Of a stretch of DNA of 64,000 bases, positions 28,050-64,000 are shown in pieces. The DNA comes from Candidatus Bathyarchaeia archaeon (GTDB taxonomy: Archaea; Thermoproteota; Bathyarchaeia; Bathyarchaeales; Bathycorpusculaceae), in NCBI GenBank assembly GCA_050010515.1, contig JBEKKX010000005.1, positions 1 to 64,000 on the forward strand, written 5' to 3'. The notes below the pieces were generated by a model. That model did not search any database. It saw only the letters and a program-made list of their open reading frames with translations, and was not told where the DNA came from. The translations under genes and the position numbers were made by a program. Position 1 is the stretch's first letter. Every line of letters begins with the position of its first letter.

Positions 28050-28236
28050 TTATATTTATGCGCAAGCCTTAACCCAACTAGTATTTACGCTAAAATAGGT
28101 TTTTTTGGGAAAAAAAGGTTTTTCTGGATTATTTTATTTTATCTTTTTTGTTTATTTTCTATGGAACTATTGTTGTCTCTATAGGCTATATTTCCAGTTT
28201 AATGTTGAATTAACTTATATATGCGCTAAATGTAGT
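28050..28236. repeat. ~185-bp intergenic segment duplicated at 60000-60187
   Basis: tgcgcaagccttaacc.aactagtattt...tattttattttatcttttttgtttatttt...gtctctatag...cttatatatgc shared between both copies. Confidence 0.88.
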
Positions 28237-41687: not shown

Positions 41688-43185
41688 ACCGATAGAGCGA
41701 CGGGTTTCTTATTTAGGTGACAGGTTACGAGCAAGCCGCTGTCAAAGTTGCGGCAAAGAATACTTTGAAGTCAGAGACTACTGTAGCAACTGTGGCAGAA
41801 AAAGCTTCGGAAAAATGGATAATATAGACCTGTTTTACGATAAAGGCAAACTTGAATTATGCACATTCATCAATGAACCCACAAACAAGTTCACTAAACT
41901 CTCCAGCTTCGTTTATGGAATTATTTCTTTTCATGATGGTAAAATCCGCGTTCCAGGAAGGCTAACTGACCAGTTGATAACTGATGATGACGATGTTGAT
42001 TTTTCAAGCCTTGAGGGAAGAGAAGTGGTTCCGCGTTTTAGAAGACGCTATTCAGTCGGCCAAAGCGACATGATTCCAACAATATCTTTGGCTTTCACGT
42101 TAGCCGACGAGTACTATCCGCACCAAGAGTACAGCGTACTCACGCCAAACAAAGAATACGACATCCCTGGAGTAATAGGTTACGGCGTTTACACTTCAAG
42201 ATTTCGAATAAAAGAAAGCGGACTCGAACGTGCTGTTCCATTCATCGACGAAGATGCAGTAACAGCCTCAGTAGAGGCTGGGAAACTAGCGCTGATTCAT
42301 TCAGGTGTTGACAGCAGGCTGGTTGGCAAAGTTTATGTTGGCTCAGAATCCAACCCGTACGCAGTTAAGCCAATCGCCTCAAAGGTAGCTCAAGTTCTCA
42401 AACTTGGCGAAGAAGACGGCGACATTCAAGGCGTTGATGCAGTGGACACGGAGTTTGCTTGTAAAGCGGCTACAAGCATGTTTAAAGACGCAGCCTCCCT
42501 TGTTAGCTACCCACGGTCAGATATAAAATACGCCATGGTTATTGGCGCAGATAACGCTCAAGCAGCACCCAGAGGTTGCCTTGGCGGTGAACTGGATACG
42601 TTTGTTGGGTACGGCGGCGCCGCGTTTATTTTCGGAAAACATGATGTTATCGCTGAAGTTGAAGGATGGTACTCATGCACGTCTGATACGCCCGATTTTT
42701 GGCGCAGAGACGGCGAGCCTTTTCCGATGCATGGTGGACGATTCACCGGTGACCCAGCTTATTTCAAGCATGTCCGCAAAGCAACATGTAAACTTATGGA
42801 ACGCTTTAACCTGAAGGCAAGTGATTTGAACTATTTTGTGGCGCATCAGCCTAACCCCCAGTTCCCAGTTAAGATAGCAAAGGAGCTTGGTTTTAGGGAT
42901 GAGCAGTATTTGCCTTCGCTTCAAATTAACAAGTTCGGCAACACTTATTCCGGTTGCTCGCCTGTGGGTTTAGCTGCAGTATTAGACATTGCAGAACCTG
43001 AAGAGCGTATCTTAGTTGCAAGTTACGGTTCAGGTGCGGGAAGCGACGCGTATTTGCTTAGAACCACAAGCCAACTTGTTGATAAGCGAAAGCGCCAAAA
43101 AGTTAATGTTAAATTCCAAGCTGAAAACCCGTTTATACAATATGTGGATTATACAACTTATCGTCGGCTTAAACTTGGGATGTAA
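41677..43185 (+). CDS. DUF35 (Zn-ribbon/OB) - HMG-CoA synthase fusion
   Basis: N-terminal CQSCG...YCSNCG + OB fold; GSESNPYAVKP, EFACKA, HQPN, GNTYSG, SYGSGAGSD. Confidence 0.88.
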   Translation: MSSEPIERRVSYLGDRLRASRCQSCGKEYFEVRDYCSNCGRKSFGKMDNIDLFYDKGKLELCTFINEPTNKFTKLSSFVYGIISFHDGKIRVPGRLTDQLITDDDDVDFSSLEGREVVPRFRRRYSVGQSDMIPTISLAFTLADEYYPHQEYSVLTPNKEYDIPGVIGYGVYTSRFRIKESGLERAVPFIDEDAVTASVEAGKLALIHSGVDSRLVGKVYVGSESNPYAVKPIASKVAQVLKLGEEDGDIQGVDAVDTEFACKAATSMFKDAASLVSYPRSDIKYAMVIGADNAQAAPRGCLGGELDTFVGYGGAAFIFGKHDVIAEVEGWYSCTSDTPDFWRRDGEPFPMHGGRFTGDPAYFKHVRKATCKLMERFNLKASDLNYFVAHQPNPQFPVKIAKELGFRDEQYLPSLQINKFGNTYSGCSPVGLAAVLDIAEPEERILVASYGSGAGSDAYLLRTTSQLVDKRKRQKVNVKFQAENPFIQYVDYTTYRRLKLGM

Positions 43186-43256
43186 CAAATACTTTAATTT
43201 GCCTTTCTGCCGAGTCACATATTACGCTTTTTAGGTTTGTTTGGTTGTTCATTTAC

Positions 43257-43472
43257 TCAAATCTCCTCTGGAAACATCGGGTCGCCGAATTCCATCAGTC
43301 CATCGCCTTCGCTGTCTTCTTGCGCGGATTCTCTGCTTTCCCGTTCTAACTCTTCAGCTTCGAGAAGTTCTTTTTCAGTTGGTTTCTTAAAGTTTTCGCC
43401 ATTCAGCCATTTTCTGAATCTTTGAGCTAAAGTCGGTTTAGGCTTTTGTGTTTCTGTCATGCGCATCATCAT
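43257..43472 (-). CDS. Small acidic-tailed hypothetical protein
   Basis: Open ORF with TTTATATA upstream, inside the element. Confidence 0.5.
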   Translation of the reverse strand: MMMRMTETQKPKPTLAQRFRKWLNGENFKKPTEKELLEAEELERESRESAQEDSEGDGLMEFGDPMFPEEI

Positions 43473-44324
43473 TTATCTTTATAGCAATGGCAAACGGCTA
43501 TATAAATCTGCCTCAAATTAGCCTTGAATCCAGTTTTTAACCTAATTGCACAACAGAAATACAAAAACAAGCCCAAAACAAGCCCAAGTGCCACATACCC
43601 TCAAATTTGGGGAAAATTTGATTTTAGCCACGGATTTTTTAGTGTTTCCTAAACCGTTTACCGCAATCCCTACATTGCCCTTCTTTGCATAGGGTCGGCG
43701 AAATTCGATTTAATTTGAAAGAGGACAGACTCTCAAACCTTTCAGTTTTCCAATGGCTCAGGTGGCTCGGGAGTTGAAGAAAACAAGGTACATAGCCCGC
43801 TTTTCTGCTGAAATTTGATTTTTCTGCTTTCAATTCTCAAATCTTCAGTACGGTTGATTAAAAATCGCAAGGCAGTATTTTTTATCGAACCTTCAAGGTT
43901 TGAGGGTATGTCACTATTTAGCTTGTTCTGGGTCTAGTCTGGATTCATTAACAGTTTTTGCTATAGGTATGTGGTACAAGCGCGGGCTTACACTTTTTGT
44001 TATGTGTGTATCGCGGGGTGTGTGTGCGGGGGCGGGGGCTTATGCTAAAGCGAGACTTTGACTATTCCCCCCTTTTTAACCCCCCTTCCCCATTTCCCTA
44101 ACCTAATCTAATCTAACCAGTTGAATAACTAACTTACTCTTACTCTCAACTGCTCTAAAAAAGATGGGGTGTGTTGACTTGGGGTTTGCCCGCGTAGTGC
44201 GGGGTGTGGATAGAGGGGGTTTGGGGCTTTGTGAATTTGAGCATGGGGTTTCTCGGCGAAGGTTTATATGGGAGTCGTGTGTCGTGTGTATTCAGATAAA
44301 GTAAATAAGAAAATGGTGAAATAA

Positions 44325-44954
44325 ATGGTTGGAAGTAAAACCTCTGGGAACCCGTATAGCATACCGATAAACTACGATAGGGAAATAGGTGAACCCATCA
44401 TTTTTATAATTCGGAAAAAGGGGTTTGGCAAAGGCACTTATGCGGGTATGGTTCTTATGCAGAATTTGAAGGATGAAATCTTTGCATATTGGAAAGATAA
44501 AGGTGAAGACCCTCAAGTTCTCTGGGATAAGTGGTTTCCTAAATGGTCAATGATGGAAGCTGAACAGAAAGAGATGAGAAACAAGGAAGCAAAGGAAGCG
44601 CATAACTTATTAGTGAATCAATATGTAGGTTTAGGCGAACTAAAGGAAAATGCGGAAAACTTGGCGTCTTTGTTTCCTGATAGTAACCCGTTAGATGTTC
44701 TCAGGGGAAAAAACTATAATACCCAGAACAAACCGATTGAGCAAAAATTAGAGACGATTGAGAATAAACAAGAAAAAACAGAACATCAAAAAGCTCTTAT
44801 GAACGAGAAACAGAGTCTTGAAACAACTTTAAAGCAGTATGAGAGAACCCCAGAGTTTAGAGTTAGATTGCACAGAATTGCAGAAATCGAAAGAGAACTA
44901 AGTGAAGAACAACCACAACAGCAAGCAGAGCAACAGCAACAACCGCATCCATAA
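44325..44954 (+). CDS. Hypothetical protein with coiled-coil/Q-rich C-terminus
   Basis: 209-aa ORF, GGTGA SD and TTTATAT upstream. Confidence 0.7.
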   Translation: MVGSKTSGNPYSIPINYDREIGEPIIFIIRKKGFGKGTYAGMVLMQNLKDEIFAYWKDKGEDPQVLWDKWFPKWSMMEAEQKEMRNKEAKEAHNLLVNQYVGLGELKENAENLASLFPDSNPLDVLRGKNYNTQNKPIEQKLETIENKQEKTEHQKALMNEKQSLETTLKQYERTPEFRVRLHRIAEIERELSEEQPQQQAEQQQQPHP

Positions 44955-45028
44955 GTTTCTTTTTTTAGCAGTTGGCAAAGTCTTAAATTCGCATAGCACT
45001 AAATAATTAAAAATGGGAACGGTAGGCT

Positions 45029-45562
45029 ATGGATAAAGAGGAAATTTTGTATTATGCAAATAGATATGATAAAGATTATTTAGAAAAGTGGATGCGAACA
45101 GAACGAGAGTTGGGTGATAAATTTCGAAAAACAAAAGAAGTAACAAAAGAGGATTTGGTTAAAATAGTGTGGTGGAAATTTGAAGGGTTGAAGGGTCGAA
45201 GGGATAGAATACTGAAATATGTTGAGAAAGATAGTGATGAGGAAGTATGTGCGTGTTCTCAGGTTTTTAATCTTACTACCCGTGAAGATTCATTTAGGAT
45301 AGGCGTTCTTGACAATCTTCAAGGTGTTGGTCCAGCTTTAGCAAGTGTTGTTTTAACGTTCTATGACCCTAAAAACTATGGTGTGTTTGACATCCACGTT
45401 TGGAGAGAATTCTTTGGGAAAGAGCCTAAGAACCTCTTTGGAAGTAGCCGTTATTACATTACACTTCTCTCTGAACTTAGAACGATAGGAAACAAATATG
45501 GCTTAAATGCAAGGACTGTAGAAAAAGCCTATTTTAAGAGAAACTATGAAAATTCAAAATAA
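45029..45562 (+). CDS. HhH-GPD/Ogg-like DNA glycosylase-fold protein
   Basis: LQGVGPALAS HhH motif followed by FDIHVWR. Confidence 0.65.
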   Translation: MDKEEILYYANRYDKDYLEKWMRTERELGDKFRKTKEVTKEDLVKIVWWKFEGLKGRRDRILKYVEKDSDEEVCACSQVFNLTTREDSFRIGVLDNLQGVGPALASVVLTFYDPKNYGVFDIHVWREFFGKEPKNLFGSSRYYITLLSELRTIGNKYGLNARTVEKAYFKRNYENSK

Positions 45563-45633
45563 ACAACATTCAATATACCAATTGGGTTTTCGTGGATAAG
45601 TCTTAAATCTGCACAACGTAGAAATAGCATAAC

Positions 45634-46125
45634 ATGACAGAAAAAGTTGCTAAAGAGTTTAAAGGCAATGTTGGCATTTTTCTTGTAGCATCAAAACTCT
45701 CAGCAATGAATATTATCGCCTTAACAACTTCAAGAAATACTAAAGGTTACGATATCGTAGCTCTTAATCCTGAGACCAATAAAGGTAAAGGAATACAAGT
45801 TAAATGTGCTGATGTTCTATCCAATAAGAAAGAAGATTTCCCAGTAGTTAGTGCATTATTCAGAACTATGCATGAAGAACTTTGCAAAAAAATTATTTGC
45901 GATTTTGTGTTTGTTGATATCTCTAATATTGAACAACCAAAATTTTTCATACTTTCAAAAGATGAAGTAATTAATATCATAGAAACAAACACTAAAGTAT
46001 GGTTAGCAAGGAAACACAGAAAACCACCTGAAGAAAGCAACAAGAAAATACTTCATACAATCAAACGGTCAGAGATAGAGAAATATGAGAATAATTGGAA
46101 TCAAATTCTGCAAGATTTATTATAG
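45634..46125 (+). CDS. PD-(D/E)xK nuclease-like protein
   Basis: G..G...V...L, KGYDIVA...IQVK. Confidence 0.65.
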   Translation: MTEKVAKEFKGNVGIFLVASKLSAMNIIALTTSRNTKGYDIVALNPETNKGKGIQVKCADVLSNKKEDFPVVSALFRTMHEELCKKIICDFVFVDISNIEQPKFFILSKDEVINIIETNTKVWLARKHRKPPEESNKKILHTIKRSEIEKYENNWNQILQDLL

Positions 46126-46374
46126 CTATATTGTATAATCTTTAGGTGTTTTTTTTGGATAAAGATTTTTTAGCAGGTCATAAACCAAATTGCCTAATAT
46201 TATCGCTATAAACAAGAAAAATCCACTCCACCAATCTATTTGATACCTGTTTGAAATGTGTGATACTCCTAAAAAGTTAATCGCAAGAATGCTAAACACA
46301 ACTATAGCAGAGATACAAACTGCAAAATATAGAAATTTAGTGATTTTGGATGCTGTGTTCTTTTTTGAGTTCAT
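46126..46374 (-). CDS. Small 2-TM membrane protein
   Basis: Two hydrophobic helices; promoter-like aagccttaaaa upstream. Confidence 0.6.
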   Translation of the reverse strand: MNSKKNTASKITKFLYFAVCISAIVVFSILAINFLGVSHISNRYQIDWWSGFFLFIAIILGNLVYDLLKNLYPKKTPKDYTI

Positions 46375-46543
46375 ATCTAACTATTCTATTTACATTGGTG
46401 TGGGGTTTTAAGGCTTTTGTGATGGGTTGGTTATACCCTACCCCTTTGTATTTTTGACTTTTTGTCGGTTTATGGCTTTTTAATCAACTGTTTAATCAGC
46501 GAAAAACATAAAAAGAATTAAAGAAAAGAAGGGGAAAAGGGGT

Positions 46544-47779
46544 TTAGAAGTCTACTTTTTCGGGTCTTTTGCGTTCCTTTTCCTCTTTCAGTTTTTGCTG
46601 TTCCTCAAAAGTAGCTTTTAATTGGTTAAAGTCTGTGAGCATTTTGTTTATACTTAAACCGTTATCAAGGCATCGCTGTTCAAGTAACGTGATTCTTTTC
46701 TCCTTTTGCTCCAGAACTTTTTCCAATTCTGTTTTCTGTTGGTTTAGTTCTGCTTTAAGTTCTCCTGTTGTTTCTGGAATCAGATAAGGCAAACACATCT
46801 TAAACAGCGTTAGATAATCTGAGTCGGGATGATTCGCATATGTTGCTTCTATTCCGCTTGGCTTATGAGAGGTTAAGGGTTTAGCTAAGTTAATGTTGGC
46901 TTTTATCTGTGGCTTTTCAAGAACTGTGCTTATTACGTCTCGAAAATCGTGAGGCGAAAAGTGTTTTTTAATATCGTCTCCAAAAGCAACTATTGAAGCA
47001 TTTAGGAATATTGCGTTAAACTGCCTTAATGCACCACCAACAACCGAACCGTAAGGATTGCTATAATAACACATGAACAGCGGCGAATCCTCATCATAGC
47101 TGATTTCTCTTTCTTTGAGTTCTTTTTTGTAGTCTTCAAATTTTTCATTCGCATAACTATGTAGAAAACCGATATGTTTAGTTCCTTTGTACTTGCCTTT
47201 TCCGTGACCTTTCAGCCTTGCCGACTCAATACTTATCCAATACGGAACTTCTTTATCATCTAAGGGTTTTAGGTCTCTCATTTTTAGCGTTCTTAATGTT
47301 CCTTTTCGAACAGGGCAACTTTCAAGAAACCAAACTAAAAATTTGTCTCTTCTGCACGTCATAGCATTTTCAAGTTTTACGCAATCATCAACGCTTGGAG
47401 TTCTCTTTTTAGCTTCAGGAACTTCTATGTTCTCTCCGACATCTTTAGCTAAGTCTCTGCCTCTTGTAGATGAGTAAAAACTCTTAACCGCTGTTAAAAC
47501 TCCCAATTGTACGCTTGGAGTTAAACCGCTATTATCCAGATAGTTCTCTAATAATTCCTCTGCTTGGAATTCTTTTTCTGTTGCTGGATTCTGTAGACCT
47601 TCAAGTTTTAACGCAATCAATTCATCGGGATTCTTTTTAGCCCAATCGCAATAGTGTTTAAGTTTTCTGGTATACTCTGTTTCTGTGTCACCGCTATTCT
47701 TTAATTTCTTATTGTAAAAGTTTTGACCGCTAACGAAACTTAATAGCCAAGTCTTATTATCGTCTGTCATTCGACTCAA
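46544..47779 (-). CDS. Tyrosine recombinase/integrase with C-terminal coiled coil
   Basis: PVRKGT (R), LKG (K), PHDFR (HxxR), TSH..GIEATY (H..Y). Confidence 0.85.
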   Translation of the reverse strand: MSRMTDDNKTWLLSFVSGQNFYNKKLKNSGDTETEYTRKLKHYCDWAKKNPDELIALKLEGLQNPATEKEFQAEELLENYLDNSGLTPSVQLGVLTAVKSFYSSTRGRDLAKDVGENIEVPEAKKRTPSVDDCVKLENAMTCRRDKFLVWFLESCPVRKGTLRTLKMRDLKPLDDKEVPYWISIESARLKGHGKGKYKGTKHIGFLHSYANEKFEDYKKELKEREISYDEDSPLFMCYYSNPYGSVVGGALRQFNAIFLNASIVAFGDDIKKHFSPHDFRDVISTVLEKPQIKANINLAKPLTSHKPSGIEATYANHPDSDYLTLFKMCLPYLIPETTGELKAELNQQKTELEKVLEQKEKRITLLEQRCLDNGLSINKMLTDFNQLKATFEEQQKLKEEKERKRPEKVDF

Positions 47780-47908
47780 AGATAGTCACCCCTTGAAAAG
47801 TTAAAGTTTTCCTTGATTCTCGGGCAAAAATTCAATATGTGACTTGATACGGGGACAAATACTTTAATAAATCACGTGTGAACTTCACATAACGACGGAG
47901 CCTACAGA

Positions 47909-58092: not shown

Positions 58093-58170
58093 TGGCGGGC
58101 CCGACGGGAATTGAACCCGCGACCTACGGATTAAGAGTCCGCCGCTCTAGCCTGACTGAGCCACGGGCCC
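58093..58170 (-). tRNA. tRNA-Lys(CTT) with encoded CCA
   Basis: GGGCCCG/CGGGCCC acceptor stem, GCGGA-CTCTTAA-TCCGT, GGTTCAATT, GCCA. Confidence 0.96.
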
Positions 58171-58298: not shown

Positions 58299-59225
58299 AT
58301 GACAAACTCTTTGGGCGAAGTTTTCATTCTAAAAACTACAGATAGAGCAACAGGTGTCCCTGCATTGCTCAACAAGTTTGGCTTAGGTGATTATTCTGGG
58401 AAGCAGGTGGCTTTGAAGGCGAATTTTAACAGTGCTGACCCGTTTCCAGCATCAACCCACCTTGACACTTTAAGAGCCATAGTGCAAACCTTAAAAAACG
58501 CTGGAGCGAGCGACGTAACGTTGGCTGAACGCAGCGGCATGGGCGACACCGAGCAGGTTCTGGAGAAAATGGGCGTTTTAGCTCTATCAAGGGAACTAGG
58601 GTTTAAGGCTGTTGTCTTAAATAACGTGGGCAAGGAAGACTGGCTTAAAGTTGAACGAGGAGGCACCCATTGGGCAAGAGGATTCTACATGGCGAAAGTA
58701 TTCCATGACGCTGACAAAGTTGTCCAGACATGCTGCCTAAAAACGCACAGGTTCGGCGGCCACTTCACGCTTTCGCTAAAGAATTCCGTGGGTTTAGTGG
58801 CAAAAAAGGTTCCTGGCGGAATGTACGATTACATGTGGGAACTGCATACTTCACCCTATCAGCGGCAGATGATTGCGGAAATAAACAACAATTACAACGT
58901 GGACTTTGTTTTAATGGATGGAATAAAAGCATTCACAACCGGCGGTCCTGACCGAGGCACGTTGGTTGAGCCTAACCTTTTGCTTGCAAGCCGGGACCGA
59001 GTGGCCATAGACGCAGTCGGAGTAGCGATCCTCAAAATGTACGGAGCTAAAGGCAAAGTTGGCGAAGCAGACGTTTTCGAGCAAGCCCAGCTACGACGCG
59101 CAGCAGAGCTGGGTTTCGGAGTGAAATCAGCCGCCGAAATACAGTTGACGCCTCTAAATGATGAAAGCAGAGTTGACGCAGAGCGGATAGAGCGGGTTCT
59201 TAAAGCGCAGGTTGCTACGCATTAA
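58299..59225 (+). CDS. DUF362 family protein
   Basis: LKANFN, LAERSG, LKTH.FGG..TLSLKN..G, DRVAID. Confidence 0.85.
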   Translation: MTNSLGEVFILKTTDRATGVPALLNKFGLGDYSGKQVALKANFNSADPFPASTHLDTLRAIVQTLKNAGASDVTLAERSGMGDTEQVLEKMGVLALSRELGFKAVVLNNVGKEDWLKVERGGTHWARGFYMAKVFHDADKVVQTCCLKTHRFGGHFTLSLKNSVGLVAKKVPGGMYDYMWELHTSPYQRQMIAEINNNYNVDFVLMDGIKAFTTGGPDRGTLVEPNLLLASRDRVAIDAVGVAILKMYGAKGKVGEADVFEQAQLRRAAELGFGVKSAAEIQLTPLNDESRVDAERIERVLKAQVATH

Positions 59226-59889
59226 CACTCATGAGTATGTCTGGCTTGTCGCTGGCTATGCCGTCCACGCCTTTCTTAGCGTATTCCTCGACTTCTTCTG
59301 GGTTGTTTATAGTCCAAACTATCACTTTTAAACCGTTTTCATGGGCTTTCTGGACATTAGCGGTATGCGTGAATCTGTAGAGGGCAAAAAGATAGTTCGC
59401 TTTCAGTTCTAACGCTGCTTTAATTGGGTTCTTGTGCTTCGCGTAAATCAAGCCTGTCTCGATGTCCTTGTTTAATTCCCTAACTTTCTTTAGCGCATCT
59501 TCAAGAAAAGAAGTGATAACAACATTCTTCTCTATGCCTTTCTTATGCACTGTTGAAAGCACTTGCTCTTCAATGCCCGTTTCCTTAAGCTCAACAAACA
59601 CCTTCACCTTCTTATCCAAAAAATCCAGCGTTTCCTCCAAAGTCGGAATTTTCTCGCCTTTCTCAGCGGAAAAGCTTTTGATTTCTTTAAGCGTAAGCTC
59701 ACTTACTAAGCCTTCGCCGTTGGTTGTCCGCTTAACATCTGCGTCGTGAATGACGACAAGTTGGTTGTCTTTGGTCTTTCTAACATCCAACTCAACTGCA
59801 TCTACGCCGATTTCTAATGCCTTCTTAAAACTCGCCAACGTATTCTCAGGCGCATAAGCCCTGGCGCCCCTATGACCAATACGCAACAT
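59215..59889 (-). CDS. Glycerophosphodiester phosphodiesterase
   Basis: GHRGA...PENT, ELDV, IHD, WTIN, GVDGIASD. Confidence 0.92.
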   Translation of the reverse strand: MLRIGHRGARAYAPENTLASFKKALEIGVDAVELDVRKTKDNQLVVIHDADVKRTTNGEGLVSELTLKEIKSFSAEKGEKIPTLEETLDFLDKKVKVFVELKETGIEEQVLSTVHKKGIEKNVVITSFLEDALKKVRELNKDIETGLIYAKHKNPIKAALELKANYLFALYRFTHTANVQKAHENGLKVIVWTINNPEEVEEYAKKGVDGIASDKPDILMSVNA

Positions 59890-59999
59890 AATAAATTGAT
59901 TCTTCAACGAAGAATAATACTTTTTGCAAGTTCCCTCTTTAGAGAGATAAGTCTTAAATCTGAAAAGCGTAGAAATAGCCTAACATGGAAAAAACAGCC

Positions 60000-60187
60000 T
60001 TATATCTTTGCGCAAGCCTTAACCTAACTAGTATTTTATGCCAAAATGGTTTTTTTGAGCAAAAAAGGCGTTTCTAAAGTATTTTATTTTATCTTTTTTG
60101 TTTATTTTTTATGGGGAGTGTTCATGTCTCTATAGACAATATTTCAAATTTAATGTGGAAATACCTTATATATGCAAAAAACGTAGT
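60000..60187. repeat. Copy of the nrdR upstream region
   Basis: Aligns with 28050-28236. Confidence 0.88.
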
Positions 60188-60530
60188 CATAATTTGGCAT
60201 TAATGCCCCAAGGCAAGGCAGAGGAATGGAGTGTGTTACCATTCGTCTGTCTTGTCCCCTTTTTGAGTTTACTAAACCTTGAAATATTTTAGGCGACTTT
60301 AACATATAAAAACTTTGGGTAAACGTTTCTGTCCAAGACAATGGTGTAAATCACCAGTCCAACCATTCAAAATTAATATCAAAATGTCAATTGACTTTTG
60401 AGACAATAACACACATGCTTAAAACTAAATTGCTTCAAATAATATATGATAAGTGTGATATCATGGTTAAAGATGACCGAGGCAAGAAATTTAGTTGTCT
60501 TAAATGTGGGGCTATGTTTAAGTGACCTGA

Positions 60531-60674
60531 ATGAGAGCAAAAGAAGTTTACTTATGCCATGAATGTCAGAAAAATATTGAAGTTGGTGATGACTTCATAA
60601 GGTTCAAGGCTTTTGGGGTCGTTAGTTACTATCATAAAAAGTGTTTCAAAGAAACCCAGAAAAAACTAAGTTAG
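60531..60674 (+). CDS. Small CxxC...HxxC zinc-finger protein (47 aa); not in the ORF track
   Basis: MRAKEVYLCHECQKNIEVGDDFIRFKAFGVVSYYHKKCFKETQKKLS*. Confidence 0.6.
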   Translation: MRAKEVYLCHECQKNIEVGDDFIRFKAFGVVSYYHKKCFKETQKKLS

Positions 60675-60789
60675 CTATCATGTAAAGAATTATTATCGAG
60701 TACATTCAAGGATTAGGAACTTCGCTATTATAGAGTAGACAAGTCTTAAATCTGAAAAGCTCTGAAATAGACTAAACAGGGAATATCTT

Positions 60790-61221
60790 ATGAGTCCCAT
60801 AGTGCCTAATTACGGTCCAATTCCAAAGTTAGAAGGTTACTTAGAAGACGCAGTAAAAACGAATTATTGGTTTTATGCTATTGTTTTCTCTGCTATCGAA
60901 GTTGAAAAATATGGCTGTGACAAAATTAGAAGCCATATGACCTCTCTAAAAGCTGAACCTTCTTTTATTGAAGCTATTTTAAAAAGAGTAAATTTGTTAA
61001 CTGTAGCTGACTGTTTACTAGAATTAAAGTTCATTGAGAAAGAAGAGTACAAAACAATAACCGAACTTAATGCAATAAGAAATGATTGTGTTCATAGAAC
61101 AGCAAAAGACCCAAGTATCAATGGTACAGAAGCTACCAAAAAATATGAACCACTAGTGAAGGAAGCAATAACTATTCTAAAAGAGAAACTTGATGCTGTT
61201 AGAATGTTTGCTGTTCCATAG
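60790..61221 (+). CDS. Hypothetical protein with HEPN-like Rx4H motif
   Basis: LNAIRNDCVH in an all-helical 143-aa protein. Confidence 0.6.
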   Translation: MSPIVPNYGPIPKLEGYLEDAVKTNYWFYAIVFSAIEVEKYGCDKIRSHMTSLKAEPSFIEAILKRVNLLTVADCLLELKFIEKEEYKTITELNAIRNDCVHRTAKDPSINGTEATKKYEPLVKEAITILKEKLDAVRMFAVP

Positions 61222-61350
61222 TGTTCTTCCTTGTTTTTGTAAACGGTTAGGGCTATTAACGAGTATTTTTGTTCTCAATACTGCTATTTTTCATTGATAA
61301 TAAACCTTAAATCTGCATAAGGCACAGAATAGACCAACTAAGGAAAATTT

Positions 61351-61917
61351 ATGAAAAGCTCGACTTACTATTTTTTAACTGTAATTATATCAATTTTTTT
61401 CTTTGCTGGAATGATTTTAACCACTCGATTTAATCCAAATATTAATTATGAAACTGCTTCCAACAGCACCAGTTCGTTTTTTGGAAATATACATTCTATA
61501 GATTACGAAACAATACCTACCATCATTAACGGAATGACTACAATAACGAGTATTATTATAGGTTTTAGTGGCGCTATTATTGGGCTTGTTTATCGTGAAA
61601 ATATGAAGAGTAAAGCACTAAGAAGAATTCTTCATGTATTTACCTTTGAATCTATAGCTGCTCTGGGTGTTCTGTTGGTTGTTTATTATTCTTTATTAGT
61701 CGGAGACTTTACCGATGCTTTAAGGTACTCTTTGGTTACAGTCCTCTTTTCGATATGCATTTTTTCTGTTTGCTTGGTTAGCGTTTTTTACAGAATAGAT
61801 AAGCTGAAAGATGCAGAATTGCAAAATATGCAACCACCAACAAAAAGCTTGTCGAAATCATCGGAAAAAGAAGAGACTCAAAAAGAGGCTGAATTGCAAG
61901 AAAAAATTATAAGTTAG
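61351..61917 (+). CDS. 4-TM hypothetical membrane protein
   Basis: Hydrophobic helices; AT-rich cassette gene. Confidence 0.65.
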   Translation: MKSSTYYFLTVIISIFFFAGMILTTRFNPNINYETASNSTSSFFGNIHSIDYETIPTIINGMTTITSIIIGFSGAIIGLVYRENMKSKALRRILHVFTFESIAALGVLLVVYYSLLVGDFTDALRYSLVTVLFSICIFSVCLVSVFYRIDKLKDAELQNMQPPTKSLSKSSEKEETQKEAELQEKIIS

Positions 61918-62019
61918 CTACCATAGTAAACAACTCTTACCGAGTACATTCAAGGGTTAGGAACTTCGCTATTTAGAGTAGATAAGTCTTAAATCTAAAA
62001 AGCGTAGAAACAGATTAGC

Positions 62020-62604
62020 ATGGAAAATAAAAACAAAGAAGACACTGAAGATGCAAGAGCAAATAATGAAGACGAATGGCAACGGTTATCTTATCAAGAA
62101 ATTGGTGAAGACAGACGACACTTCGACTCTATGTTGTGGGAAATTCCAACTGCAATCTTCTTGGTTGATTCCTTTTTATTAGGATTAGTCAGTTCTTTAT
62201 CAGGTAAGGGCTTTTATCTGCTTATTCTTCAAGAAGTCTTGTTAGGTTTCGCTTCAGCTTTTACAATTCTCTTGACAGTGACCCTACGTAAAGTTGCTAA
62301 AAGGTCAATTGATAGAATGGAGTTGCTTAAACAAATGGAAGGGCAAACGAAAGAACAAACGAAAGAGCAAAGGGAAGTACAACTACCACCGATAAAACAC
62401 AAACGTTTTCCTGAAGAAAAAGGATACCTTACATGGAAGGTTGGAGTTCTCGTGTGTGGGTTGCTAATTTTGTTTGCTTTTGTCCTAATTGGTCTAATGA
62501 TTGCTCTATTTTTTTTACCCTCACATATTTTCAACCGTTACTCTTTCTATTCTGCAAAATGCATTAAACTGTTAGGGCTATTACCGAGTACATTCAAGGG
62601 TTAA
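62020..62604 (+). CDS. 3-TM hypothetical protein (SLATT/RipA/Pycsar-effector-like topology)
   Basis: Y..I.E..RHFD...W helix followed by a TM hairpin and a C-terminal TM. Confidence 0.55.
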   Translation: MENKNKEDTEDARANNEDEWQRLSYQEIGEDRRHFDSMLWEIPTAIFLVDSFLLGLVSSLSGKGFYLLILQEVLLGFASAFTILLTVTLRKVAKRSIDRMELLKQMEGQTKEQTKEQREVQLPPIKHKRFPEEKGYLTWKVGVLVCGLLILFAFVLIGLMIALFFLPSHIFNRYSFYSAKCIKLLGLLPSTFKG

Positions 62605-63193
62605 GTATCTTCTTAATCTCCTTTTATCAAGTGCGGGGGGAGCTTACTCTATGGAGAGAATATTAAATAAAAACTGTAAATACTGATAAGAAAAGGCACT
62701 AATTAACAATTTTTCATTTAATTCAATTTCCCATATATCAGTTCCATACCTGAAAGTAAATTATCTTTCCCAGATCACTTAATATCGGGACAAGGCATCG
62801 CATTTGAAGGTCTCAAACGCTTTAAGGACATGTGACTTGTAACGAAAGTTTGCTGTCAAAACGTATATGCATTTTCCCCCGGGAAGGTAGTAGCCTACAC
62901 GTATATTCAATCCTATTGAAAACCATGACAATAGAAGAAGGCCCAAATAGCAAAGGTTACTTTAAGCAAAACCAAAAGTTGTGACTCTTTTTGCTAAAAA
63001 AAGCACTTGCGGAATCTACTGATAGAGTAACAATTTTTTTAAAGAAAATTAGCAAGGAGGGATAGGGTATCAATTTAGCAACTGAATTTCTCTAGCAAAA
63101 TTGACAGGTAAAGAACGTAATTTTTGCATTTCTCTATAGACGTAGAGTGGGTGGCTATATTCTTTGAAAACACTATGGACACAAACATGATTT

Positions 63194-64000
63194 TTATGCT
63201 GCTGCATCCAGTGTTTTTAGCATGCTTCCTGACCGGTAGCCTTCCAAATCAACTGTTACATACTTGAATCCTAATTTTTTCAAATCTTCAGCTACCCTGT
63301 CCAAAACATCGACATTGCAAAAGAGCGCTCTTTCAGTTTTTCCAACTTCTATTCTTGCTAACCCGTTATGGTCTCTAACTCGGATCTGCTTAACCCCAGT
63401 TATCGCTTTTACGGCTTGCTCTGCCTTGTCGATTCTACTCAACTTCTCAGCCGTAATTCTCTCATTAAACGGTATCCTCGAAGCCAAACACGCTAAAGCA
63501 GGCTTGTCATGAACGCTAAGCCCCATGGTTTTGGCTACTTGGCGAATCTCATCCTTACTAAACTTGTTAATCATCCATGGACTATACACGCTTTTTACTT
63601 CCTGAACAGCTTTGAATCCTGGTCTGTGATCGTTTAAATCGGTGAAGTTTGTGCCTTCAAAAACCGCTTTGAACCCGAGTTCATGCGCAAAGTCAATTAG
63701 GGATTTGAGTAATTCTTTTTTGCAGTAGTAGCAGCGGTTTTCAGGGTTTTTGCTAAAATTTTCGTTGGATAACTCGTCAGTTTCAATCACATGCAGTTTG
63801 ATGCCTATGTCCTTGGCTGTTTTTTTAGCATCCGTTAGCTCTTCAGACGTGTATGTTGGAGATTGAGCTATAACGGCCACAGCCTTCTCGCCTAGAACCC
63901 CGTGGCTTACAGCAGCTAATGTTGAGCTGTCCACGCCTCCAGAAAAAGCGATTACCACGCCGTCCTTTCCTTTTTCCTTGATGAAAGCTTTGAGTTCTTC
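63194..64000 (-). CDS. larE: LarE-family ATP-dependent sulfur transferase (5' end beyond the window)
   Basis: AFSGGVDS PP-loop, RCYYCK, RPG, ACLASRIP, RVRDH...ARIE, GYRSGSM. Confidence 0.9.
   Translation of the reverse strand, partial: EELKAFIKEKGKDGVVIAFSGGVDSSTLAAVSHGVLGEKAVAVIAQSPTYTSEELTDAKKTAKDIGIKLHVIETDELSNENFSKNPENRCYYCKKELLKSLIDFAHELGFKAVFEGTNFTDLNDHRPGFKAVQEVKSVYSPWMINKFSKDEIRQVAKTMGLSVHDKPALACLASRIPFNERITAEKLSRIDKAEQAVKAITGVKQIRVRDHNGLARIEVGKTERALFCNVDVLDRVAEDLKKLGFKYVTVDLEGYRSGSMLKTLDAAA

Follow-up and report, generated by a model that had tools for sequence, protein, structure and literature searches.

The window analysed here is the first 64,000 nucleotides of contig C5 (G000:C5:1-64000) in G000, a 2.38-Mb, 98.5%-complete genome of a Bathyarchaeia archaeon from peat. 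Near its right end lies an AT-rich island (59800–63199), with a GC content of 0.31–0.375 compared with 0.42–0.505 before the island. We read this island as a head-to-tail stack of four autonomous expression cassettes, which resemble the 'morons' of phages and sit in a recombination-prone slot between two core genes, and not as an integron; the probability that we assign to this reading is about 0.6. The repeated sequence between the genes, which the first-pass annotation of this DNA had described as a conserved linker, consists of two modules: a promoter-like module of ~55 nt, termed P, and a tail of ~45–75 nt, termed T. On the forward strand the island has the order P1, a composite first unit with a 47-aa open reading frame (ORF), T-P, a 143-aa ORF, a degenerate T-P, a 188-aa ORF, T-P and a 194-aa ORF running into a last T, followed by a spacer of 590 nt (Table 1).

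P is built from AAGTC, a TATA-like octamer (TTAAATCT) and then ..GCRTAGAAATAG. Copies were located at 59945, 60737 and 61980 (79–90% over 48 nt), with a degenerate copy at 61300. Together with the T copies described below they lie where related repeat units had been suspected, and far beyond chance: the 13-mer AAGTCTTAAATCT occurs 26 times in the genome, against an estimated chance expectation of ~0.07. A profile search of the genome gave 42 P sites at E ≤ 0.01, 34 of which have a downstream ORF. At these 34 sites the start codon lies at least 31 nt from the first T of TTAAATCT; the spacing is 31 in four cases, 32 in two and mostly 34–52 in the rest. The array copies have distances of 31 nt (P1, linker 4) or 44 nt (linkers 2 and 3), two of each.

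A TATA box about 31 nt before the start is the geometry of archaeal leaderless or short-leader mRNAs. A promoter of the leaderless type should have its TATA-like box ~24–31 nt upstream and no closer start, and this is what the minimum of 31 among the 34 copies amounts to. The likeness to archaeal promoters of leaderless mRNAs, composed of a B recognition element (BRE) and a TATA box, also includes an A/T-rich stretch near −10. From this geometry we infer that P fires as a promoter and is a conserved archaeal one; the earlier proposal that each cassette carries a promoter-like module of its own agrees with it. With a predicted start ~31 nt downstream of the box, two array copies would initiate transcription on the A of the ATG (leaderless), and the remaining two would yield a 13-nt leader. 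In several copies with longer spacing, GGGG/GAGG-like words were recognized by eye before the ATG. Unlike a generic archaeal BRE/TATA promoter, P is conserved to roughly 85–95% over ~55 nt across unrelated genes and species, and the conservation extends past the BRE/TATA part, over 20 nt between box and start.

T consists of two sub-repeats of ~30 nt (..ACATTAAACGGTTAGGGCTATTACC, then GAGTACATTCAAGGGTTA), followed in the linkers by a spacer (GGAACTTCGCTATTTA) and the P unit. The genome contains eight solid copies, four of them in the array (60682, 61926 and 62570, plus 61240/62565 with 92% over 26 nt), and T copies are 65–92% alike. Linkers 2 and 4 are 86–89% identical over ~107 nt, and this stretch takes in the final codons of the genes preceding them. 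As had been noticed from the sequence, the TAG within GTTAG is the stop codon of the 47-aa (60672–60674) and the 188-aa (61915–61917) ORF, and the gene starting at 62020 reads into its own copy, the last T. The relatedness of the units is thus as described, but one merged consensus is not, since two registers exist: the distance to CGAGTACA is ~25 nt from GTTAG in linkers 2 and 4 (60668, 61911), and 14 nt from GTTAGGG in the remaining T copies. Thirteen T-P units, taken from the window and ten other loci in several genomes, are nearly invariant from GAGTACATTCAAGG to GTAGAAATAG and have unrelated flanks.

The assignment of T to the upstream or the downstream gene was approached with a gene family present in five contexts (C50, C18, L057, L064 and L126). 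In each of them the gene is followed by T. Where the copies can be aligned, homology is lost right after CAAGGGTTA / TTCAAGGGTTA, and what comes next is P, a degenerate P, a hairpin-like variant or other DNA. Because of this constant position and the end of homology right after TTCAAGGGTTA, T fits better as the tail of the upstream gene than as a group of boxes belonging to the promoter downstream. Over all loci, P comes after 23 of 46 T sites. T may act as a 3' signal or as portable homology.

Five folds of T and T-P, on both strands, were none better than shuffled sequences (z −0.25 to −0.88), and the consensus fold of the 13 T-P units reached −7.5 kcal/mol, with one of 17 pairs compensatory and no covariation. 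As no Rfam family came over threshold either, an RNA element was rejected. A terminal-inverted-repeat element of the MITE type (miniature inverted-repeat transposable element) was also discarded. The complementary ends reported in the first-pass annotation (GTTAGGGCTATT and AATAGCCTAAC) hold well only for the first P against the T copies; P and the reverse complement of T are no more alike than shuffles (p 0.12–0.79), and no duplication is seen at the array ends.

The same slot, between the GDPD (glycerophosphodiester phosphodiesterase) gene and the PP-loop ATPase gene, was compared in six species. No island protein is common to any two of them (blastp, 1e-3), while the flanking proteins are mostly 85–97% identical; GDPD orthologues in relatives are 83–97% and PP-loop ATPase orthologues up to 95% identical. 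P occurs in the same orientation in four of the six slots. Besides the array of G000, the slot of G046 contains P, a 291-aa ORF, P and a 185-aa ORF, and that of G062 contains P, a 235-aa ORF, T-P and more. The slot of G052 (1.75 kb) has one P without cargo, and those of G016 (1.3 kb) and G004 (7.1 kb) have neither P nor T. On the left side, homology between species reaches ~59938–59941 (...CTCTTTA) and ends there, at the 5' edge of P1.

Exchange of partners was also seen at single modules. Homology upstream of T allowed a test in eight non-identical pairs, and the DNA downstream is unrelated in seven of them (one of these seven consists of two contigs of apparently one metagenome-assembled genome, MAG). 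Conversely, in three of four pairs with homologous DNA downstream, the upstream DNA is unrelated. The cassette for a 195-aa protein on contig C15 was found in G046 in another array with other neighbours, in G016 a piece of the C3 cassette is located at a distance of 16 kb from the orthologous flank, and of other G000 arrays (C44, C15) the five nearest relatives have scattered pieces only. Since slot content differs in six species and partners are swapped at T in seven of eight pairs, cassette-like mosaicism with partner exchange at T is supported by these comparisons. Gene order is not identical in relatives, the cargo shows no sign of paralogy and the junctions vary, so that none of the three objections named in advance applies to the proposed recombination-built array.

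P itself can be exchanged at the start codon. The C15 cargo gene has P fused to its ATG in G000; its relative in G016 has a Shine–Dalgarno-like GAGGTG and a GTG start, and homology between the two begins at the start codon. In a second case (G000:C2 compared with L196), the gene is preceded by P in one genome and by a different AT-rich sequence in the second.

Among 120 genomes of the genus, 57 contain the 26-nt P pattern with up to one mismatch, and G000 has the highest number (27 copies); the reversed pattern, used as a control, gave no match in the 120 genomes. The 112-nt T-P unit was found in 11 of 24 genomes of the genus and in none of 16 genomes from other genera of the order. P was further detected in three IMG/VR contigs, near-copies of one another, where it precedes the gene for a 211-aa membrane protein in an AT-rich patch between larger unannotated ORFs of higher GC; T was absent from the IMG/VR contigs searched. 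With P in only three such contigs and T in none, a viral origin of the modules was rejected. P is a predicted promoter of accessory and mobile-element genes throughout a subclade of the genus and is not special to the array of the window. In the largest array seen (L126 and L177, the same stretch, counted once), 4 kb of DNA accommodate nine to ten P and three to four T sites, all on one strand. One locus, G004:C58, was left out as it looked chimeric (GC 0.6–0.69).

A scan of a genome collection (596 Gb) for the T core returned 104 stretches, where ~140 chance matches are expected by estimate. The loci examined were 15 from Bathyarchaeota/Bathyarchaeia, nine from one Woesearchaeota MAG and two single archaeal ones, which looked like chance matches. 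In the Woesearchaeota MAG a hairpin repeat (GAAAACCTTGAATGC...GCATTCAAGGTTTTC) contains the 18-nt T core (L085, L092, L100, L103, L113, L131, L134, L149), and the matches there are copies of this genome's own repeat, probably a coincidence.

We propose that each cassette begins with P and that three of the four end with T, which would stay with its upstream gene; T, a short spacer and the next P would then appear as the 'linker'. Within one subclade of the genus, accessory and mobile genes would have P as their common promoter, which could be put on or taken off exactly at the start codon. General (homologous) recombination would extend and remodel the arrays, acting on the near-identical P and T-P copies found on chromosomes, integrative elements and viruses.

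Several observations weigh against this proposal. T occurs within 400 nt after the stop codon in only 10 of 68 P-driven ORFs and is therefore optional. It has neither an oligo-T run nor a hairpin and so is not a textbook archaeal terminator; it could also be taken for operator boxes that belong to the next P, given the GAGTACAT-like words upstream of the TATA box. That an 85-nt non-coding unit is nearly identical in different species could equally be explained by a dedicated recombinase, by strong selection or by homologous exchange. In addition, the array appears constant in its own strain, being identical in six metagenome assemblies. In four runs from four studies (X10, X12, X14, X17), window-identical contigs tile the array in the same order, and two more metagenome contigs hold it at 99.96–100% identity, although some of the array-bearing metagenome contigs may be the source sample. 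No excision, circle or reshuffling was seen in reads or contigs of the strain, where contigs drop rare variants and rare rearrangements are possible. Read joints that seemed to skip (59974/59983 to 62542–62571) or to go back were rejected as deletions or circles: their sides are 25–33 nt, their middles are unread, and they derive from other P and T copies of the community.

The array had been called integron-like, and it does share features with integron arrays and their attC sites, including clusters of attC sites lacking integron integrases (CALINs) and the archaeal integrons of Ghaly et al. (2022; PMC9668308). Like these, it is one-directional, consists mostly of single, unrelated orphan genes and has a recurring unit of ~110 nt. 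The unit includes the stop codons of some genes, relatives differ in content and order (six species; seven of eight pairs with swapped partners), and the words GTTAG and CTAAC resemble core sites. In archaeal integrons, according to that paper, IntI and/or clusters of attC sites are required. The best match of the IntI model TIGR02249 in the 98.5%-complete genome reaches 20.1 bits against a cut-off of 265 bits. PF00589 has five matches in the genome and none on contig C5, no serine recombinase was found in the genome, and the integrase at 46544–47779 belongs to a separate element with its own attachment (att) sites. The absence of IntI had been stated correctly from the sequence. The hairpin of an attC site, with R''/L'' pairing with L'/R', is not formed by the unit (z and consensus energy as given above). 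The order RYYYAAC ... GTTRRRY is also not found, as on either strand the unit starts with GTTAG(GG) and ends with CCTAAC. This reversal of the classical core-site order had likewise been recognized; the CTAAC end varies between P copies. Moreover, the cassettes here have their own predicted promoters in place of a common Pc, and P occurs alone dozens of times. Because IntI and the hairpin are absent, the core-site order is reversed and each cassette has a predicted promoter of its own, we do not count the array among the integrons. With no covariation, no nearby recombinase and no excision or reshuffling in the strain, the integron-like mechanism put forward at first is not borne out.

A functional analogue of an integron could nevertheless work with other parts: T-P would be a recombination site, and cassettes would excise as circles and re-insert through a recombinase encoded elsewhere, for example one from the family of the tyrosine integrase at 46544–47779. 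This 411-aa ORF is missed by PF00589 and scores 21 bits on the XerA model. It is identified as a divergent tyrosine integrase by relatives with PF00589 (carried by 42 of the 120 relatives listed), its position at the end of an element of 4.67 kb, the 14-bp direct repeats at both ends of that element (0.05 expected by chance) and the empty site in relatives. The site is empty in four of the five nearest relatives, and three of these four keep a single copy of the repeat. A paralogue with 52% identity is encoded at G000:C2:53507-54724. The element carries one P and one weak P-like site (Table 1). In genomes with known P places, near-full-length members of the integrase family were found at ten places, three of them (G000:C5, G112:C3 and G022:C5) with P within 2.5 kb, where chance would give ~2% per place by a rough estimate; a further weak P-like site lies beside the integrase copy on G000:C2. 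The occurrence of P on the integrated element, before accessory genes and near integrases makes it a promoter type of the mobile and accessory pool, which explains its spread, and its proximity to integrases also keeps a trans-acting recombinase under consideration. Such a site-specific system would account for the single breakpoint that T copies in many genomes share, right after TTCAAGGGTTA, and for an array that starts with P and ends with T, as expected if a P..T block had been joined at a single position within the unit. In addition, 11 of 15 positions agree between the core flank preceding P1 (CAAGTTCCCTCTTTA) and the spacer in front of other P copies (GAACTTCGCTATTTA), a resemblance that may, however, only reflect the GDPD promoter.

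Most arrays, on the other hand, have no recombinase nearby. PF00589 genes show no consistent linkage to P arrays in five other P-rich genomes, and in G109 an array with nine P sites contrasts with a single PF00589 match on another contig (a soft argument, as PF00589 misses some members of the family). The integrase of the window has its own, unrelated 14-bp att, the T-P unit lacks hairpin and covariation, and neither circles nor alternative joints were seen. We regard a site-specific system as unlikely. A wider proposal leaves the agent open: T-P would be the crossover site of a cassette-exchange system native to Bathyarchaeia, served by a recombinase in trans or by homologous recombination on the 85-nt unit as 'portable homology', in which every cassette has its own leaderless promoter and moves between chromosomes, integrative elements and viruses. 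In this general form we regard it as doubtful.

Selection for binding might replace exchange as the cause of conservation. P, with T as its operator boxes, would be maintained for a dedicated transcription factor or a TFB/TBP paralogue, and the array would be a set of co-regulated genes for small membrane proteins. Conservation of P well past BRE/TATA points in this direction, as do the GAGTACAT-like words at about −80, −48 and −13 from the TATA box (a spacing of roughly 31–35 nt) and the hydrophobic segments in 20 of 34 cargo proteins. Binding selection leaves the wholesale replacement of the slot unexplained, and equally the nearly all-orphan cargo and the presence of P on an integrated element and viral contigs. 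A regulon is compatible with a stack of autonomous cassettes and does not replace it; as the sole explanation it is improbable.

The island might also be the decayed remnant of one integrated element or provirus, the genes of which all bore the promoter type of the element and were left over without forming cassettes. The AT-richness, the use of P by genes of the integrated element and by the gene in the viral contigs, and a tRNA-Lys gene 1.8 kb away would agree with that origin. The island has no integrase, att repeats or element backbone genes, however; different P-driven genes in the same slot and orientation in four of six species point to repeated events, and partner swapping at T is not expected from simple decay, which makes a remnant very unlikely. 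Local tandem duplication of one gene with its spacer, followed by divergence, is suggested by the 86–89% identity of linkers 2 and 4 and can be dismissed, as the cargo proteins fall into different clusters without detectable similarity and the same linker accompanies other genes in other genomes.

The favoured stack of autonomous cassettes has its closest parallels in two kinds of flexible DNA. The phage 'morons' of Hendrix and colleagues are reportedly autonomous promoter-gene-terminator units inserted between phage genes. The units described here are alike in being self-contained, mostly with a single gene, an own (predicted) promoter and a composition unlike that of their neighbours, and they occur in chromosome islands, in an integrated element and in three viral contigs, that is also inside mobile elements. 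They differ from morons in sharing one conserved promoter and often one tail, and in stacking in arrays; T is a terminator only putatively. Additive or replacement flexible genomic islands likewise have the same flanks and a wholly different content in each species, with homologous recombination as a plausible driver, but in the present case single genes are exchanged, with dedicated short conserved modules as their borders. In the literature searched, no description of such promoter or tail modules was found.

The cargo is unusual in being almost free of known families. None of the four cargo proteins of the window array reached a Pfam cut-off. The three encoded by P-driven array genes form three different clusters without detectable similarity, in line with the earlier statement that the genes are unrelated. 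The 34 P-driven genes of the genome encode proteins with a median of 92 aa, have a GC content of 0.36 (genome, 0.426) and in 20 cases specify at least one hydrophobic segment. Together with related genomes, 68 P-driven ORFs group into 62 clusters. A Pfam scan of 61 other proteins encoded behind P gave three that reach a cut-off (DUF1922, Zn_ribbon_3, UPF0489). The 143-aa protein has sub-threshold matches to HEPN_RiboL-PSP (E 0.0067) and HEPN_Apea (E 0.049). A search of 5.8 billion proteins gave six relatives, one of which carries the name DUF86 family in its source, and the Atlas leads to HEPN_RnaseLS clusters at 0.86–0.87; a single-sequence structure model has a pLDDT (predicted local distance difference test) value of 45. 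Membership in the HEPN superfamily is plausible from these similarities. The label 'defence-like' for the cargo as a whole does not follow from below-threshold matches of one protein. Relatives of the 194-aa protein occur in two of 100 other genomes of the genus, with 33% identity.

The first unit departs from the single-gene pattern that had been assumed for the whole array. Its segment 59985–60667 is not a clean single-gene cassette, as it combines a copy of the nrdR upstream region with two small CxxC ORFs: positions 60000–60187 are an 83% copy of the intergenic region upstream of nrdR at 28050–28236. The word TCTCTATAGAC, common to both regions, recurs at 63127–63141. The Zn-ribbon-like protein of this unit matches Prok-RING_1 of Pfam below the cut-off (E 0.0056).

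Table 1. Coordinates of the array, its flanks and the integrated element in the window.
Feature	Position	Strand	Details
Integrated element, 4.67 kb	43185..47868		14-bp direct repeats ACAAATACTTTAAT at both ends
Weak P-like site in integrated element	44967-44999		before 177-aa gene
P in integrated element	45581-45635		fused to ATG of 163-aa gene (predicted leaderless)
Tyrosine integrase, 411 aa	46544-47779	-	at end of integrated element
Left core flank, GDPD gene	59215..59889	-	Pfam GDPD, 159.9 bits
P1, left array edge	59932..59984	+	TTAAATCT 59954-59961, ATG 59985, distance 31; nhmmer E 2.8e-12
First unit, composite	59985..60674	+	30-aa ORF, nrdR-upstream copy, 44-aa CxxC ORF (60391-60525), 47-aa Zn-ribbon-like ORF (60531-60674)
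T-P linker 2	60668..60789	+	T 60676-60718, P 60720-60780, TTAAATCT 60746-60753, ATG 44 nt after box start
Cargo, 143-aa all-alpha protein	60790..61221	+	RNDCVH (Rx4H) motif
Degenerate T-P linker 3	61239..61350	+	T 61241-61265 (nhmmer E 4e-4), P 61282-61343 (E 1.1e-3), TTAAATCT 61307-61314, ATG 44 nt after box start
Cargo, 188-aa protein	61351..61917	+	4 hydrophobic segments; no Pfam family over cut-off
T-P linker 4	61910..62019	+	T 61922-61962, P 61965-62023, TTAAATCT 61989-61996, ATG 31 nt after box start (leaderless geometry)
Cargo, 194-aa protein	62020..62604	+	4 hydrophobic segments; last 13 codons run through terminal T
Terminal T without P	62542..62605	+	nhmmer E 1.3e-12; ends ...TTCAAGGGTTA, breakpoint common to T copies elsewhere
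Right spacer, AT-rich	62606..63193		no convincing gene; ~95-nt recurring element (62706-62801), dispersed palindromic repeat (63045-63110)
Right core flank, PP-loop ATPase gene	63194..64000	-	extends past window end; Pfam NAD_synthase 39.6 bits and other PP-loop families

The flanks of the slot show some further features. The GDPD gene starts with ATG at 59889 (a TTG start at 59907 is given in the ORF list). It is broken in some relatives, being split in G062 (L051) and interrupted by stop codons in G063 and G043. The tRNA-Lys(CTT) gene mentioned above (58093–58170, reverse strand) is separated from the array by two core genes.

The right spacer contains two types of repeat. Copies of the ~95-nt element in other genomes lie downstream of a terminal T or of P-driven genes (L052, L057, L116, L045/L088), and further copies occur in G000 itself (C20:42450-42543 and C22:135-226); a larger block, 62700–63041, is 88% identical in G046. 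The second repeat is partly palindromic (GGGATAGGGTATCAATTTAGCAAYTGAATTTCTC.AGCAAAATTGA) and dispersed in ~23 copies over both strands of G000, four or five of which lie within 500 nt of P or T-like sites. A different dispersed repeat, A/C-rich and ~110 nt long, is found at L006:2512-2629 (G000:C3:64825-64942); it has many copies in relatives, with ~18 places listed in G004 and ten in G046. A copy of it adjoins the PP-loop gene in G004 and G062, and at that place G000 and G052 have the palindromic repeat. Six contigs of G000 terminate in the same sequence of ~122 nt (99–100% identical; starts of C15, C18 and C21, ends of C23, C34 and C66). It diverges at ...GCTGGCGCG and abuts a T copy in C18; probably it marks the end of a multi-copy element at which the assembly broke.

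Little is known about the ways in which Bathyarchaeia, an abundant and uncultured group, acquire new genes and express them. The locus reveals a dedicated, portable promoter module characteristic of the accessory genes of a whole subclade, a tail module where genes change partners and a hot spot that is replaced entirely between species. If the exchange were catalysed or programmed, this would be an archaeal analogue of integrons. Even if only homologous recombination is at work, P would provide a handle to find young accessory genes and to predict leaderless transcription, and it would be a candidate strong promoter for genetic tools.

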